This document shows, piece after piece, positions 8,401 to 23,392 of a stretch of 52,345 nucleotides of DNA; the first letter of the stretch is position 1, and every line of letters begins with the position of its first letter. The notes under the pieces are model-generated. The model ran no database searches, was not told the DNA's origin, and saw nothing but the letters and a program-made list of their open reading frames with translations. This DNA comes from Candidatus Thorarchaeota archaeon (lineage in GTDB: Archaea > Asgardarchaeota > Thorarchaeia > Thorarchaeales > Thorarchaeaceae): the NCBI GenBank assembly GCA_029858305.1, contig JAOUFI010000011.1, forward strand, positions 1 through 52,345, written 5' to 3'. A program made the translations under genes and the position numbers.

Positions 8401-8476
8401 AGCCCCGTGGTGTAGTGGTCAAGCATAGGCGGTTCTGGCCCGCCTGACCTAGGTTCAAATCCTGGCGGGGCTACCA
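8401..8476 (+). tRNA. tRNA-Gln, anticodon CUG, CCA encoded, no intron
   Basis: Acceptor stem AGCCCCG/CGGGGCT with the archaeal Gln A1-U72 pair, anticodon arm GGCGG-TT CTG GC-CCGCC, T-loop TTCAAAT, 3' ACCA. Confidence 0.96.
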
Positions 8477-18036: not shown

Positions 18037-19698
18037 ATGGAGCTAACAAACATGGCTACAGATGATATTAAACCGGTACCAGAATCACCAGTCCGACATG
18101 ATGATGGTGATATCTCTAGGTACCGTGTCGAGAGGTATCCAGTAAAGGAGCTCCCCTATACAACTCAGTCTATCTGTCCTGAGTGTTTCCTTTCTGATGA
18201 CGAAGTTCATGTCATTGATGCAACACTGTATGAAGATAACGGCAAGGTCATGTACAAAAAGACTTGTGAGAAGCACGGGGAGTTTATTGATGTTTATTGG
18301 GGCGATGTAGATCTATTTCGAAAAGCACAGACTTGGTGGTACAAATCTGTAGGTTTAGATAATCCACGAACCGAAACCGTGAAAGGCTGTCCTGAGGACT
18401 GTGGCCAATGTCCAGAACACAAGTCACATACAGCTTTAGCCTTGGTGGATGTGACCAACCGATGTAACCTCCGATGTCCAATTTGCTTTGCAGTTGCAGC
18501 TGAAGGCGGTACGGTCTATGAACCCGATCCACAAGAGGTCTTTGACATGCTCAAAAACCTTCGAAGTAACTTACCTGTTCCAGCTCCTGCAGTCCAGTTT
18601 GCAGGTGGTGAACCTACAGTAAGTAAGAATCTACCTCAGTATATCAAATGGGCAAAGCAACTAGGCTTCAGACATGTTCAGATTGCTAGTAATGTGATTC
18701 GAATCGGAAAGAGCAAAGAATACCTGCAAGAGTTACGCGATGCTGGTCTATCTACTATCTACATGCAATTTGATGGTGTAACTTCCGCACCGTATCTTGC
18801 TGCACGTGGAACTGATCTCCTACCATTAAAGAAACAAGCCATTCAAAATGCTCGAGAAGTCGGAATGGAATCTCTTGTTTTAGTACCCACAGTAGTACGT
18901 GGTGTCAATGACGACCAACTTGGGGATATTATCCAATTTGCAGTAGACAACCGCGATGTCATCCGATGTGTGAATTTCCAACCAGTGAGTATTACTGGTC
19001 GTATTGACCATAAGGCTCGTCATGAGATGAGAATCACTATTCCTGATGCTATTCATCTCATCGAAAAGCAGACGGGAGGAAAGATACCAGCCAGTGAGTG
19101 GTATCCTGTTCCATCAATGATGCCAGTAGGTCGAGCACTTGGTCTAATCAAGGGTGGTCCTGAACTGGAACTCAGCTCACACTTTGCATGTGGAATGTCT
19201 ACGTTCATCTTCATCGACGAGGATGGCAGCTACAAACCAATTACCGAAGTCATTGATGTTGACAAGTTTCTCGTGCTCCTTGAAGAGATTGCCAATCTAT
19301 ACGCTGATCAGAAGACAGCAGCAGGTGCACGTGCAAAAGCAAAGCTAGCTGCAGGTGCCAGACATATCAAGAAGAAGGGTATTCTAAAGGACCTCCTCAG
19401 TGCGTTCCTCAACCGTGGTGACTACGATTCTCTTGCTCAGTTTATGCGTCGTGTCATCATGCTAGGAATGATGCACTTCCAGGATCCCTACAATTTCGAT
19501 CTTGAACGTATCCAGCACTGTGATGTAAATTACGCAGTACCTGATGGTAGAATCATCCCATTCTGCACAATGAATACAATTCACAGATCACGTGTGGAGG
19601 AGAAATTCTCAAAGCCTATCGAGGAGTGGCGAAAGGGTCACAAACCAACTCAGGTAGAAGAGGACAGTATTAGCAAACCATATAAAAGTGGCCAGTAG
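18037..19698 (+). CDS. tes: Tetraether lipid synthase Tes / GDGT-MAS (radical SAM)
   Basis: N-terminal SICPEC...CEKHG metal site, GCPEDCGQCPEH, CNLRCPICF, RCVNFQPVS, HFACG, MHFQDPYNFD...C...PDGRIIPFC. Confidence 0.9.
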   Translation: MELTNMATDDIKPVPESPVRHDDGDISRYRVERYPVKELPYTTQSICPECFLSDDEVHVIDATLYEDNGKVMYKKTCEKHGEFIDVYWGDVDLFRKAQTWWYKSVGLDNPRTETVKGCPEDCGQCPEHKSHTALALVDVTNRCNLRCPICFAVAAEGGTVYEPDPQEVFDMLKNLRSNLPVPAPAVQFAGGEPTVSKNLPQYIKWAKQLGFRHVQIASNVIRIGKSKEYLQELRDAGLSTIYMQFDGVTSAPYLAARGTDLLPLKKQAIQNAREVGMESLVLVPTVVRGVNDDQLGDIIQFAVDNRDVIRCVNFQPVSITGRIDHKARHEMRITIPDAIHLIEKQTGGKIPASEWYPVPSMMPVGRALGLIKGGPELELSSHFACGMSTFIFIDEDGSYKPITEVIDVDKFLVLLEEIANLYADQKTAAGARAKAKLAAGARHIKKKGILKDLLSAFLNRGDYDSLAQFMRRVIMLGMMHFQDPYNFDLERIQHCDVNYAVPDGRIIPFCTMNTIHRSRVEEKFSKPIEEWRKGHKPTQVEEDSISKPYKSGQ

Positions 19699-20127: not shown

Positions 20128-20516
20128 TTCGTTTCTTTCCTACTCTTCTCTAGTAAAACCAATTTGGTTAATCTCACAGCTTCTTTGGTTAATGAGCCTA
20201 ATTCTCGAACAAGTAGACAATTCGATTTAGTTTTTCTACCTGTTTTTACACCTCTCAAGTATCTAATCTCTAGTTATAGTGTGGTTATATTTTACAGGCA
20301 CTCTTTAGTTTCAGATTAATAAGATGAAAGAATAGGAAATTCGGCCATAGATATTATCCTGTCTGAAATGCCTTCTATGTCGATTTTTCACTATTATTTC
20401 ACCTTCTATAAGCAGATTTGTTTCATATACCTAGAAACTTAAACATTTTATAAACAGCCAAAGAGAATTCCTACACATAAGGAAAGTTTAATAAGCCACC
20501 TCGTTTTATGACTAAT

Positions 20517-20676
20517 GTACGGAGGGTCATGGGCACGACAACCCTCTATACAAGAAGCATAGGCGAGTGTGTGGGCTAGTTTTTCGTTACATGCCCTCAA
20601 TTACGAAACTCCCCCCTCCTACCACGATTTCCCGCATGCTCGCCACCTTTTACTAAGATGTCTAGTGATTGGAGGT
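20517..20676 (+). ncRNA. Candidate structured RNA with its own promoter
   Basis: Purine-rich BRE-like sequence plus TTTAATAA (20487-20494). 14-bp helix 20562-20575/20631-20644 with three G-U pairs, a 5' hairpin, an inner hairpin and complementary loops. GC-rich island in AT-rich DNA. Confidence 0.65.
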
Positions 20677-20766
20677 AAGCCTGATCATCTTGATTCATTT
20701 TCTGATTCTTCTACACAAGTAAACTAATATCGTTTCTATCCGTAATCCAAATAGTGTAAAGTTTCT

Positions 20767-21093
20767 ATGAGGGTGAGTCTAGCTGGAATGAGAGCAATTA
20801 GGATTCCACGACTACGTCTGTTGGTATTTGGTATAGGGTGGATTCTGTTTACTATCATACTTGAGTTTGTCAATCAAATTGTTGTACAAATTGTTATAGA
20901 TAATGTTTCTAATGATTATCCATATTTACCATATGCACCTTCATTTCTTCACGCAGTTTATGAAACGACAGGAAACTTGGGAGTAACTATCATAAAATTA
21001 TGGTTGAGCCGTGGAGTATTCTACGGTATCGGAGTTATAATCATTCTATATTGGTGTTATGCGGCAGTACGCCAGTTTAATGAAGAGCGATAA
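20767..21093 (+). CDS. Small membrane protein (about 2 TM), hypothetical
   Basis: Hydrophobic segments near both termini; AT-rich. Confidence 0.6.
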   Translation: MRVSLAGMRAIRIPRLRLLVFGIGWILFTIILEFVNQIVVQIVIDNVSNDYPYLPYAPSFLHAVYETTGNLGVTIIKLWLSRGVFYGIGVIIILYWCYAAVRQFNEER

Positions 21094-21141: not shown

Positions 21142-22353
21142 CTACTCTTTATTCACAAAGTCGAAGAATTCGATAATTTCTTGGACATGATCACCTGGAA
21201 TAATGATGTGGTGATTGGCCAAAGACTCTTCAAGGAAATAATCTACAGGTTCATCCATCGCCACTCGGATTTGCGTTCTGCATGCATTCTCGTTAACAAG
21301 ATTATCAATAATGGTACCACCAGAAACCCAGTATTCACTCAAGTCCTCTCCAAACACCTTCAGGATAGTAACCTCAGAAAGAGGCAATTTACCACGCACA
21401 CCAATACTCATTCCTGTCTCAAAGTGATTTGTGATTTCATAGCCATCAGTAATGCTTGTGGATATTGTGCAATGAGCAAAGACCGCCGTGTTGAGTTCTT
21501 GATTCACACTCGCAACATTTGCCATGAATGTTGGAGAACCGGTGAGTAATCTTGCAAGAAGCATTGTGAATGTCGCTGGAATATCTCCCTCACAGCCTGC
21601 CACGAAACCTTCCATGTCATTAAGGTGCGAAAGAGAGTAACACCCTGAGATACCAGTTTCTTGCAGAAGTGAAAAGCACTGGACTGTCATCGCAGCCAAT
21701 TTCTTACTTTTGGCAAGTTCTACTAATCTCTGTGCAACAATTCCAGCTTTTTCGATTTCATTATCAGAAACGCTTTGACAATTAGCATTGGCCTTGAATG
21801 TATCAACATGCTCTAGAAACTCCTTGCTAATTTTTTCAGGAAGCCGCTTTGTCAGTTCATCTATCTGAATATCTTCAATGTCCAATCCCCACCTCTCTTT
21901 TACCCTTTGAGAATTCACATACGATGCAATCAACCAAGATGATGGTTCGCCAATAACTCCCAGTTTATTCTCTCTTAGTTGTTCTAAAATACCTAAATAT
22001 TTGGACCATCTTCTTAGTAGTGCATACAGCTGTGGCAATGGCATGTGTACAATTCTTGAAGCTATTCCTTTCCTCTGTAGGTACGAGCGTATCTCCATCG
22101 CAGCTGGAAGCGAATTTCGTTCATCATAACTGAGTAATATGATCGGTGGTTTGAGGTCCTCTGTTTCAAGAAATTTTGATACGTCGTTCTCAGTACCCCC
22201 AGTGCCAATGAAAATGTATGTAGGCTCACTTGGAGTAATCTTGCTAGTAGTAGTATGTATATTCACAGTTTCCTGTTCCAGTTCCTTCAAGACCTCTCTG
22301 CTGAGACCCTCGGGGGAAACGGATGAAAAAAATGGGACTATGTTAATAGGCAT
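21142..22353 (-). CDS. L-fucose/L-arabinose isomerase-like protein
   Basis: GTGGTE, NSLPAAME, CF...GC, AGCEGD, AHCT, CRTQ, LANHH, typical of the FucI-related C-terminal family. Confidence 0.8.
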   Translation of the reverse strand: MPINIVPFFSSVSPEGLSREVLKELEQETVNIHTTTSKITPSEPTYIFIGTGGTENDVSKFLETEDLKPPIILLSYDERNSLPAAMEIRSYLQRKGIASRIVHMPLPQLYALLRRWSKYLGILEQLRENKLGVIGEPSSWLIASYVNSQRVKERWGLDIEDIQIDELTKRLPEKISKEFLEHVDTFKANANCQSVSDNEIEKAGIVAQRLVELAKSKKLAAMTVQCFSLLQETGISGCYSLSHLNDMEGFVAGCEGDIPATFTMLLARLLTGSPTFMANVASVNQELNTAVFAHCTISTSITDGYEITNHFETGMSIGVRGKLPLSEVTILKVFGEDLSEYWVSGGTIIDNLVNENACRTQIRVAMDEPVDYFLEESLANHHIIIPGDHVQEIIEFFDFVNKE

Positions 22354-22477: not shown

Positions 22478-23392
22478 ATGTCTCTTCGTGGTGAATTAGA
22501 TATATTTCATGTTGATGCCTTCACAGACAAGCCTTTCGGAGGTAATCCTGCGTCAGTTGTTTTGGGTGCTGATCGATTAGATGATGAGATGCTATACAAA
22601 ATAGCTCGCGAGATGAACACGCGAGAAACTGTTTTTGTTATGAAATCTGAGGTCGCCTCCTTTCGGTTCAGATATTTTACACCAAAAATTGAGATAGGCT
22701 TCTCAGGTCACCCTACTATCTCAGCCTATCATGCTCTTCTTAGAGAAGGCTTGATTGAAGCTGTAAAGGACATCACGATGACTAGCTTAGAAACAAAAGC
22801 CGGAATCTTAAATATTGAAATAGTAAAGAATGAATCAGCTGGTCGCCACGAAATTCAAATCACACATAGAAAACCGAGTTTCTTAGAAACCTATGATCCA
22901 AAGGATTATCTTGCTGCTCTTGGTCTTTCTTTAGCTGACTTTCAATCTCCAAATCCAATTCAGACTGTTAGTACTGGAACACCTCATCTGATTTTGCCTG
23001 TTTCTACCATGAGGTCACTTGATAGGATAAAGCCAGATTGGGAGAAACTCAAAGAACTTCAAAAGGATTCGGACTATGTATCACTAAGTGTTTTCACAAG
23101 ACAGACAAGAGAACCCACCTCTGATGCTCAAGTTCGCCATTTCGCACCTGCGCTGGGTGTTTACGAAGATCCCGTATCAGGTTCAGCGGCAGGAAGCCTA
23201 GCTAGCTATTTGATACGCTATGGTTTCATGGAAGTGACTTATCCGGTAACGAGTATCGTTATTGAACAGGGTCACTATGTAGGTCGTCCAGGACTCATAT
23301 TCGTTGAGGTGCGCGGTGATAAAGAGGGAATCGAGCAAGTCAAGGTCAGCGGCACTGGAGTTGTCATCTTCAAAGGAAAACTTTTCATTTAA
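22478..23392 (+). CDS. PhzF-family isomerase/epimerase
   Basis: VDAFTDKPFGGNPA, ETVF, RYFTP..E..FSGH, EDPVSGSA, EQG..VGRPG. Confidence 0.93.
   Translation: MSLRGELDIFHVDAFTDKPFGGNPASVVLGADRLDDEMLYKIAREMNTRETVFVMKSEVASFRFRYFTPKIEIGFSGHPTISAYHALLREGLIEAVKDITMTSLETKAGILNIEIVKNESAGRHEIQITHRKPSFLETYDPKDYLAALGLSLADFQSPNPIQTVSTGTPHLILPVSTMRSLDRIKPDWEKLKELQKDSDYVSLSVFTRQTREPTSDAQVRHFAPALGVYEDPVSGSAAGSLASYLIRYGFMEVTYPVTSIVIEQGHYVGRPGLIFVEVRGDKEGIEQVKVSGTGVVIFKGKLFI

Follow-up and report, generated by a model that had tools for sequence, protein, structure and literature searches.

No known organisms are more closely related to eukaryotes than the Asgard archaea, which are mostly uncultured. Annotation pipelines detect only those RNA families that are already in Rfam and, to our knowledge, almost nothing is known about the non-coding RNAs (ncRNAs) of the Asgard archaea. 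RsaE/RoxS, the 'UCCC-motif' small RNAs (sRNAs) of the Firmicutes, are reportedly encoded by small genes with a promoter and a terminator, and carry at least two C-rich motifs that are left unpaired and whose sequences complement G-rich Shine-Dalgarno (SD) regions. Among archaea, sRNA41 and sRNA162 of Methanosarcina mazei are said to act in trans as single-copy RNAs that pair with SD-containing 5′ regions of specific targets. This analysis concerns an RNA gene on a 52,345-nucleotide (nt) contig of a Candidatus Thorarchaeota archaeon (JAOUFI010000011.1, assembly GCA_029858305.1; the whole stretch is referred to as the window). The gene, for a structured ncRNA of ~130 nt, occupies approximately positions 20517–20651 of the + strand, and it is close to certain that it represents a genuine, undescribed, order-specific and multi-copy ncRNA family.

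The closest analogy for the possible action of the Thorarchaeota RNA may be RsaE/RoxS, in that two C-rich motifs predicted to be unpaired are presented on a clamped scaffold. Unlike RsaE/RoxS, to which it has no Rfam homology, the Thorarchaeota RNA has an archaeal promoter, 1–7 paralogs per genome and a long terminal clamp, and it combines ~55 invariant nt, as opposed to short seeds, with an optional self-complementary leader. The M. mazei RNAs may be likened to it as archaeal sRNAs with proposed SD-region pairing, but they belong to another phylum and have no detectable similarity, whereas the Thorarchaeota core is multi-copy and invariant across the order. The locus had been singled out in an earlier note, made from the sequence alone, as an unannotated ncRNA. 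That reading is borne out by the lack of an Rfam match, a conserved promoter, a covarying helix and an order-wide family, and a re-reading of 20200–20950 recovered every motif where the note had placed it.

Structure and covariation

The RNA consists of a 5′ leader and a clamped core, all encoded on the + strand. The leader forms hairpin 1 (20521–20547), in which GGAGGGT (20521–20527) pairs with ACCCTCT (20541–20547), or GGAGGGU/ACCCUCU in the RNA, around a loop with GGGCA (20531–20535). An A-rich linker (20548–20561), unpaired in the fold and differing in sequence among orthologs, leads to P1, a 14-bp clamp helix between GGCGAGTGTGTGGG (20562–20575) and CCCGCATGCTCGCC (20631–20644). P1 encloses a near-invariant interior of ~55 nt (20576–20630) that comprises a junction, the P2 hairpin (20582–20608) and a C-rich tract. 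In P2, UUUCGU (TTTCGT, 20582–20587) pairs with ACGAAA (20603–20608) to expose the loop UACAUGCCCUCAAUU, within which TGCCC lies at 20592–20596 and UGCCCUCA at 20592–20599. The tract, CUCCCCCCUCCUACCACGA (20609–20627), contains CCUCCU and includes CCCCCCTCC (20611–20619); the 5′ strand of hairpin 1 is complementary to its CCCUCC (20614–20619) as well as to its own 3′ partner.

When folded, the + strand RNA (20517–20651) reaches −42.2 kcal/mol (z = −3.10), a value that none of 200 shuffles equals, while the − strand has a z-score of +0.45, with 132 of 200 shuffles as good. The predicted fold matches the drawing in the earlier note exactly. The tract that the note had described as exposed is unpaired in this fold, as is the P2 loop, with probabilities of being unpaired in the pseudoknot-free ensemble of 0.93 and 0.86, respectively. 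P1 holds three G-U pairs, which would give A-C mismatches on the opposite strand. The helix and the strand assignment of the note are both upheld, and only the + strand outperforms its shuffles.

The family occurs in three gene layouts with a common core, termed types A, B and C, and the window copy is of type A. Since MAFFT misaligned the types in a mixed set, from which RNAalifold recovered only 6 pairs for types A and B together, the helix was assessed on type A alone, using a plain MAFFT alignment of 48 distinct elements that was not fitted to the structure. Both sides change in 12 of the 14 P1 pairs, and 96.9% of P1 cells hold standard pairs. Over the whole structure 95.2% of cells are paired, compared with 86.9% in shuffles; sliding the 3′ partner by 1–3 columns leaves at best 60.7% of cells paired. 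None of 500 shuffles reaches any of the five measures, a count that is not a probability given the kinship of the aligned sequences, though the distinct compensated helices are still numerous. In a set of 123 distinct elements covering all types, the duplex between the two flanks has a median energy of −29.5 kcal/mol, against −18.6 kcal/mol when the 3′ flank is taken from another element. Compensated variants of the outer helix among orthologs include ..GUGUGUGGG/CCCGCAUGC.., ..GCGUGUGGG/CCCAUAUGC.. and GGCGGGUGCGUGGG/CCCAUGGACCCGCC. Covariation, for which the earlier note had proposed a test, is present in P1 across 48 relatives, and alignment evidence of this kind indicates that the 14-bp P1 is a true RNA helix kept by compensatory mutations. 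Hairpin 1 also compensates in its stem among orthologs (GGGUUUG/CAAACC vs GGGUUUU/AAAAC) and keeps GGG(C/U)A in its loop.

P2 has a different record. Its UUUCGU/ACGAAA stem is constant throughout type A and, as it never varies, provides no covariation evidence; the 8 'unpaired' P2 cells in the covariation analysis are a one-column MAFFT offset in AACAAUG variants. In type B the stem has two uncompensated mismatches at its middle, while the upper part of the hairpin is retained together with its loop. An H-type pseudoknot between GGGC (20572–20575) and GCCC (20593–20596) was considered and rejected, as those Gs are not constant among family members and change in concert with their partners on the 3′ side of P1.

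While the clamp varies, the interior does not. The alignment of the 48 type-A sequences, drawn from many genera, has 34 columns without any variation and another 18 with at least 90% conservation, and the majority of these columns fall in the interior. The interior GGGCUAGUUUUUCGUUACAUGCCCUCAAUUACGAAACUCCCCCCUCCUACCACGA(U)UUCCC is invariant across 20 orthologous loci. Between species, 20552–20654 is 91–98% identical and the flanks diverge. Two C-rich motifs predicted to be unpaired, AUGCCCUCA in the hairpin loop and CUCCCCCCUCCUACCAC in the tract, are invariant in the family, and both contain CCCUC. The core recurs in types B and C, and a copy from the sister family keeps GUUUUUCGU, UGCCCUCAA and ACGAAACUCCCCCCUCCUA inside a wholly different and fully compensated clamp, GGUGAAGGGUUGGG/CCCAACCCUCACC. 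What is conserved as a functional unit is the 86-nt clamp and interior, to which the 5′ hairpin is an optional addition.

The genome that contains the window (G000) has three copies of the gene: the window copy, one on contig C119 and one on contig C138. The last of these (~1985–2112, + strand; also L022) has a hairpin of ~30 nt, CAAUCAGCAAGACUUCCUUGCUGAUGGGGAA, inserted in the otherwise invariant C tract, and could represent either a variant or a copy in decay.

Promoter, gene layouts and expression

Upstream of the RNA, a purine-rich sequence resembling a B recognition element (BRE), AAGGAAAG (20479–20486), and a TATA box, TTTAATAA (20487–20494), read as an archaeal promoter at 20479–20494 on the + strand. 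With the usual archaeal spacing of ~23–27 nt past the TATA box, transcription would start at 20517–20521. The BRE/TATA element claimed in the earlier note is present and is conserved among orthologous loci: in the alignment of 20 such loci, (C/G)TTTAATA(A/G) stands at the same position in 17 of the 19 rows that reach the region (the sequence of L019 ends before it), and the exceptions are L018, with ACTTAATAA, and L020, without a clear box. At the 3′ end, CACC is invariant in 48/48 type-A sequences and is followed by a pyrimidine-rich run; on this basis the conserved ACC tail and subsequent T run of the window copy (20645–20651) probably form the terminator.

The layouts differ in how promoter and clamp are spaced. 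Type-A genes have a TATA box ~75 nt before P1 and a leader of 30–45 nt that is usually a hairpin, followed by GGCGAG..P1..CUCGCC, ACC and a pyrimidine run. A strict YTTWAWA box occurs at −90 to −55 relative to P1 in 20 of 59 distinct type-A upstream regions; others have variant boxes, such as TTTATTAGG, closer to P1. Type-B genes are without a leader; of their 28 distinct upstream regions, 22 have the box CTTAATAGG at −35 to −26 of P1, a position from which transcription should begin at the clamp itself. The type-B clamp is GUGGUCAG.../...CUGACCAC-ACC and that of type C is GGUGGUAAGGG.../...CCCUGCCACC. The fixed distances of the TATA boxes, together with conserved chromosomal slots specific to each paralog, indicate a separate gene with its own archaeal promoter.

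Some indication of transcription comes from RNA libraries, in which the conserved core was word-matched in 6 metatranscriptome runs. Contigs of 84–195 nt covering 20555/57 to 20633/49 were found in 4/4 runs examined, from 4 studies, a result that reports presence only and for which contaminating DNA is possible. Some of these contigs reach into the 5′ hairpin of a relative. As the copies are those of relatives and the contigs carry no information on strand, ends or level, they hint only weakly at expression of family members.

Distribution and novelty

A BLAST search with a 261-nt query against 41 related genomes returned matches in 26, with 1–7 matches each: every one of the 24 other genomes in the genus and the single genome of a second family in the order. 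The 15 genomes searched that belong to other families of the phylum had no match. The picture was similar with a covariance model derived from the 48 type-A sequences, which was run on 151 genomes across the phylum: within the window's family (14 genera), 25 of 26 genomes matched, with 1–7 copies each, as did 1/1 genome of the sister family, and none of 123 genomes from 25 other Asgard families did. In the window, the model matches 20562–20647 at 110.6 bits. The sole family genome with no match to the model is G062, which is 99% complete and was searched under the stricter filters of a large search. The family appears, from the genomes searched, to be confined to the Thorarchaeota order of the Asgard archaea.

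When 185,579 species, each represented by one genome, were scanned for the sequence pattern, at least 119 loci were found. The matches listed were titled Thorarchaeota, Promethearchaeota or 'uncultured archaeon', along with one titled Hermodarchaeota. The element and flanks of this last locus (L062) are nearly identical to those of a Thorarchaeota locus (L056), a likeness that suggests a binning or labelling issue and not presence in a second class. The pattern had 0 matches in a collection of viral contigs. It should be noted that contigs of metagenome-assembled genomes (MAGs) often start or end inside the element (e.g., G004:C7:5-76, G002:C13:5-75, L066, L076 and L110). This is to be expected of a 50–70-nt exact repeat, which breaks short-read assembly, and the copy numbers of the RNA in MAGs are probably underestimates.

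The RNA has no match among catalogued families. At the gathering score, the 4227 models of Rfam 15 found only a tRNA (8401–8473) in the whole window, and at E ≤ 10 over 20300–20850 the only match was a chance one to IsrR, outside of the element; ARAGORN likewise called only a tRNA-Gln in the window (8401–8476) and no tRNA at the RNA locus. These searches agree with the earlier note, which had set tRNA and C/D guides aside; the absence of C/D boxes is by inspection. No description of the family was found in the literature as far as it could be consulted, and supplementary files could hold unnamed candidates.

Several known architectures were compared with the RNA. Archaeal H/ACA sRNAs have a similar outline, a hairpin with a large internal loop directly followed by an ANA-like triplet (here ACC), but inspection revealed no tandem GA, kink-turn (K-turn) or K-loop motifs, the triplet is ACC, and there is no Rfam match. 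Further, the 'pocket' is invariant among paralogs and not variable as in a guide, and it has no rRNA complement of at least 9 nt. Pairing with rRNA in the manner of a small nucleolar RNA was rejected on the same ground: in the rRNA operon region of the same genome there is no complementary k-mer of 9 nt or longer, and the three complementary 8-mers compare with ~5 expected. By inspection only, selenocysteine insertion sequences (SECIS) and C/D and H/ACA guides were set aside for want of boxes or a K-turn, as were hepatitis delta virus (HDV)-like and hatchet ribozyme topologies, since P1 is a plain hairpin closure with no nested double pseudoknot.

Genomic context

The upstream neighbor of the RNA in the window is a radical SAM protein with an HMPTM-type zinc ribbon (18037–19698, + strand; PF04055, PF23545) and the downstream neighbor is a PhzF-like protein (22478–23392, + strand; PF02567). 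Between the RNA and the PhzF-like gene are two open reading frames (ORFs) without a Pfam family, one for a hydrophobic protein of 108 amino acids (aa) on the + strand (20767–21093) and one of 403 aa on the − strand (21142–22353).

Neighborhoods were counted for 120 element instances in loci L043–L161. The radical SAM gene (~550 aa, HMPTM-type zinc ribbon) lies upstream on the same strand in 43 of these, and a PhzF-like gene starts 45–191 nt downstream on the same strand in 30; in many relatives it is only 45–75 nt past the RNA. Type-B copies in 16 instances follow a PAS histidine-kinase gene at a distance of 77–93 nt. In smaller lineages the RNA precedes an H+-pyrophosphatase (4 instances) or an HD-domain gene (3), and downstream neighbors on the opposite strand include a methyltransferase (5), a major facilitator superfamily (MFS) transporter (4), a 402-aa protein (3) and a 220-aa protein (2). 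No neighboring protein is common to the paralog lineages (radical SAM/PhzF, PAS histidine kinase, H+-pyrophosphatase and leucine-rich-repeat (LRR) protein). Conserved neighbors that differ among paralogs imply that the RNA is not a leader dedicated to one gene, and the paralogs appear to be old, each in a conserved chromosomal slot of its own. Within the H+-pyrophosphatase lineage, a conserved 129-aa ORF without a Pfam family ends a few bases before P1 (L069:5947-6336, − strand). A truncated form of this ORF occurs at L055:1012-1185 (+ strand), where its 5′ part continues straight into the RNA.

Proposed function

The genome uses GGAGG-type SD sites. Across 2177 starts of long ORFs, GGAGG peaks at −15 to −12 with 18–35 counts per position over a background of ~0–5, and GAGGT and GGTGA peak just downstream, such that the three motifs span −15 to −9. 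The 16S rRNA of the same genome ends in ..GGAUCACCUCCU, including ..CACCUCCU, and its anti-SD hexamer, CCUCCU, is contained in the invariant tract CUCCCCCCUCCUACCAC of the RNA. This likeness points to a tentative function, held here at somewhat less than an even chance, in which the exposed CCCUC/CCUCCU sequences pair in trans with G-rich SD-like sequences and the type-A leader serves as a self-masking arm. In such a mechanism, the CCCUC-type motifs would pair with GGAGG and GAGGG sequences and so mask or titrate ribosome-binding sites. The type-A leader, through GGAGGG and GGGCA, would close into a hairpin by itself or else pair back with the tract and the loop, and these alternatives would give the type-A RNA an open and a masked state.

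The self-masking arm can be assessed through the complementarity of the leader. UGCCC and the tract are invariant and thus covariation cannot test either leader pairing; instead, exact complements were counted in 60 distinct type-A leaders and in 1424 control windows from the same loci. Perfect complements of the tract of at least 6 nt occur in 30/60 leaders, compared with 158/1424 controls (11%). They use several registers (GUAGGAG, GGUAGG, GGAGGG, GUAGGA, UGGUAGGA and GUGGUA) and cluster at −54 to −39 or −28 to −20 of P1, near the inferred 5′ end of the transcript. Complements of the loop of at least 5 nt are found in 36/60 leaders and 640/1424 controls, a weak excess, and both complements appear in nested order in 17 leaders. 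For the window copy, GGAGGG:CCCUCC (−12.7 kcal/mol) is comparable in energy to hairpin 1 (−11.8 kcal/mol), and GGGCA:UGCCC with 3 additional bp reaches −10.5 kcal/mol, values that make two states energetically plausible. In type B, GGUAGGG within the 5′ strand of P1 is also complementary to CCUACC. The 'conformational switch' of the earlier note therefore fares differently in its two parts, as the alternative pairing of GGAGGG with the C tract has gained support from the counts, whereas the GGGCA/UGCCC kissing loop has gained little.

A number of observations weigh against trans pairing and its masking arm. Half of the type-A leaders have no tract complement of at least 6 nt, and type-B genes are entirely without a leader. 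The leaders are related by descent, so the enrichment is overstated and should be taken as a lead, not as proof. Duplex energies for the whole leader, a cruder measure, favor the pairing weakly and in a noisy manner (median −20.65 vs −16.1 kcal/mol; median z of −0.76; empirical p ≤ 0.05 in 25% of leaders). Exact complements of at least 12 nt in the same genome, outside of the family genes, number ~12 against ~16 expected, and the best duplexes with its ribosome-binding sites form a mixed list, including alternative starts, with no standout target. Support for a transcript comes from RNA-library contigs, possibly derived from DNA and without strand, ends or abundance. Lastly, and as the main counterargument, near-invariance over ~55 nt, including the UAGUUUUUCGU, UUACGAAAC and UACCACGA that are not C-rich, far exceeds what a pairing seed needs and is more in keeping with a tertiary fold or a protein partner.

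Alternative explanations

The last of these observations is the starting point of the leading alternative, which is itself on the unlikely side and yet nearly as likely as trans pairing. The interior may be a platform or tertiary fold for a conserved Thorarchaeota protein, with P1 holding its shape and the paralogs being copies of the RNA of one ribonucleoprotein (RNP); the anti-SD likeness would then be a decoy for the protein or incidental. An interior of ~55 nt that is invariant over 14 genera inside a clamp that varies is the pattern of protein-bound or catalytic RNAs, the same core recurs in several paralogs per genome, and the scans of the genome and its rRNA gave no convincing RNA target. 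Against an RNP core, no one protein gene accompanies the RNA throughout, the neighbors differing by paralog lineage. Hypothetical partners would be a KH-type poly(C) or anti-SD binder (such as Dim2/Pno1) or a Sm-like protein on UAGUUUUUCG. Y RNAs have a comparable build, with a length of 85–135 nt, a long stem of 5′ and 3′ strands around a pyrimidine-rich internal loop, several paralogs and a U-rich 3′ end, but they keep the stem and vary the loop, and the Thorarchaeota RNA does the reverse. There is no match to Y_RNA in Rfam, and TROVE/Ro60 (PF05731), the sole candidate partner tested, is absent from the 28 genomes of the Thorarchaeota order searched, including that of the window (it occurs in 2 of 123 other Asgard genomes). 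A Y RNA identity was rejected on that absence.

A bolder and improbable proposal joins elements of the trans-pairing and RNP explanations. An Asgard-specific RNP or regulatory RNA could act on the SD/anti-SD step itself, with the core mimicking the 3′ end of 16S rRNA (CCUCCU) and the leader mimicking the SD (GGAGG). Type A would be a bistable 'pro-RNA' with an intramolecular SD:anti-SD helix that is opened by processing or by a partner, and that tunes the docking of ribosomes on mRNA, or a factor in small-subunit maturation, throughout the cell. We know of no bistable SD:anti-SD RNA device of such a kind described in archaea.

Extreme conservation of unpaired nucleotides would also be expected if the interior were a new ribozyme or aptamer, acting in catalysis or ligand binding, and a tRNA-like substrate, from which RNase P would free the leader by cleaving at the first G of P1, would account for a type-A helix that is preceded by one. 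This group of explanations is quite improbable. The gene is laid out like the tRNA genes of the same genome, which have a TATA-like box ~30 nt upstream, pyrimidine-rich trailers and, in 22/24 ARAGORN calls, an encoded CCA; the RNA similarly has a TATA box ~30 nt ahead of the G that opens a terminal helix, with ACC and a pyrimidine-rich trailer following the helix. However, it has no cloverleaf, its clamp is at least 14 bp, its tail is ACC with U/C in place of CCA, and the sister-family homolog ends in ..CACC-AAA, without the ACC. Even at E ≤ 10 there was no match to a ribozyme, riboswitch or tRNA family, and ARAGORN found nothing at the locus.

Very improbable is a cis-regulatory, riboswitch-like leader whose CCUCC would sequester the SD of the downstream gene. 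The PhzF-like gene found close by on the same strand in 30 of 120 instances, and the H+-pyrophosphatase (4) and HD-domain (3) genes that follow the RNA elsewhere, are what such a leader would predict. The downstream genes are nevertheless on the opposite strand in several lineages and have no common function; in the window the PhzF-like gene is 1.8 kb away, behind a gene on the opposite strand, and the RNA is still fully conserved; and the helix is followed by a conserved pyrimidine/T tract. Downstream genes on either strand and of unrelated functions do not fit a family of riboswitches or cis-acting leaders.

That the locus is not an RNA gene at all, and instead a miniature mobile element, a small ORF or a chance structure, is scarcely credible: the copies are multiple and some MAG contigs end inside the element, but such breaks are expected from an exact repeat of 50–70 nt in short-read assembly, the chromosomal slots are conserved across genera, the 'inverted repeat' keeps its pairing through G-U and compensatory changes and viral contigs gave 0 matches, while the 21-codon frame opened by an ATG at 20591 loses its register among family members through indels of 1, 2 and 5 nt and its third codon positions are invariant. 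The conserved site between the radical SAM and PhzF-like genes implies that the window copy is not a mobile element, and the miniature inverted-repeat transposable element that the earlier note had allowed for finds no support in the conserved flanking genes, the covarying arms with their G-U pairs or the viral contigs. A guide RNA of TnpB/IscB, or another mobile element, was rejected in view of the conserved housekeeping-type neighbors and the lack of viral matches, as was a coding frame from the ATG in view of the frame shifts.

Implications

The conservation of the core is comparable to that of rRNA, and the family is lineage-defining, with several paralogs per genome. It is a clearly delimited orphan of 86 nt whose clamp is defined, whose motifs are invariant and which occurs naturally both with a leader and without one, and it is useful as a marker for the Thorarchaeota as well. 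Should the RNA be a regulator of translation initiation, it would add a new level of control to a lineage in which SD sequences are used; should it be the core of an RNP, it would point to an undiscovered RNA-protein machine.

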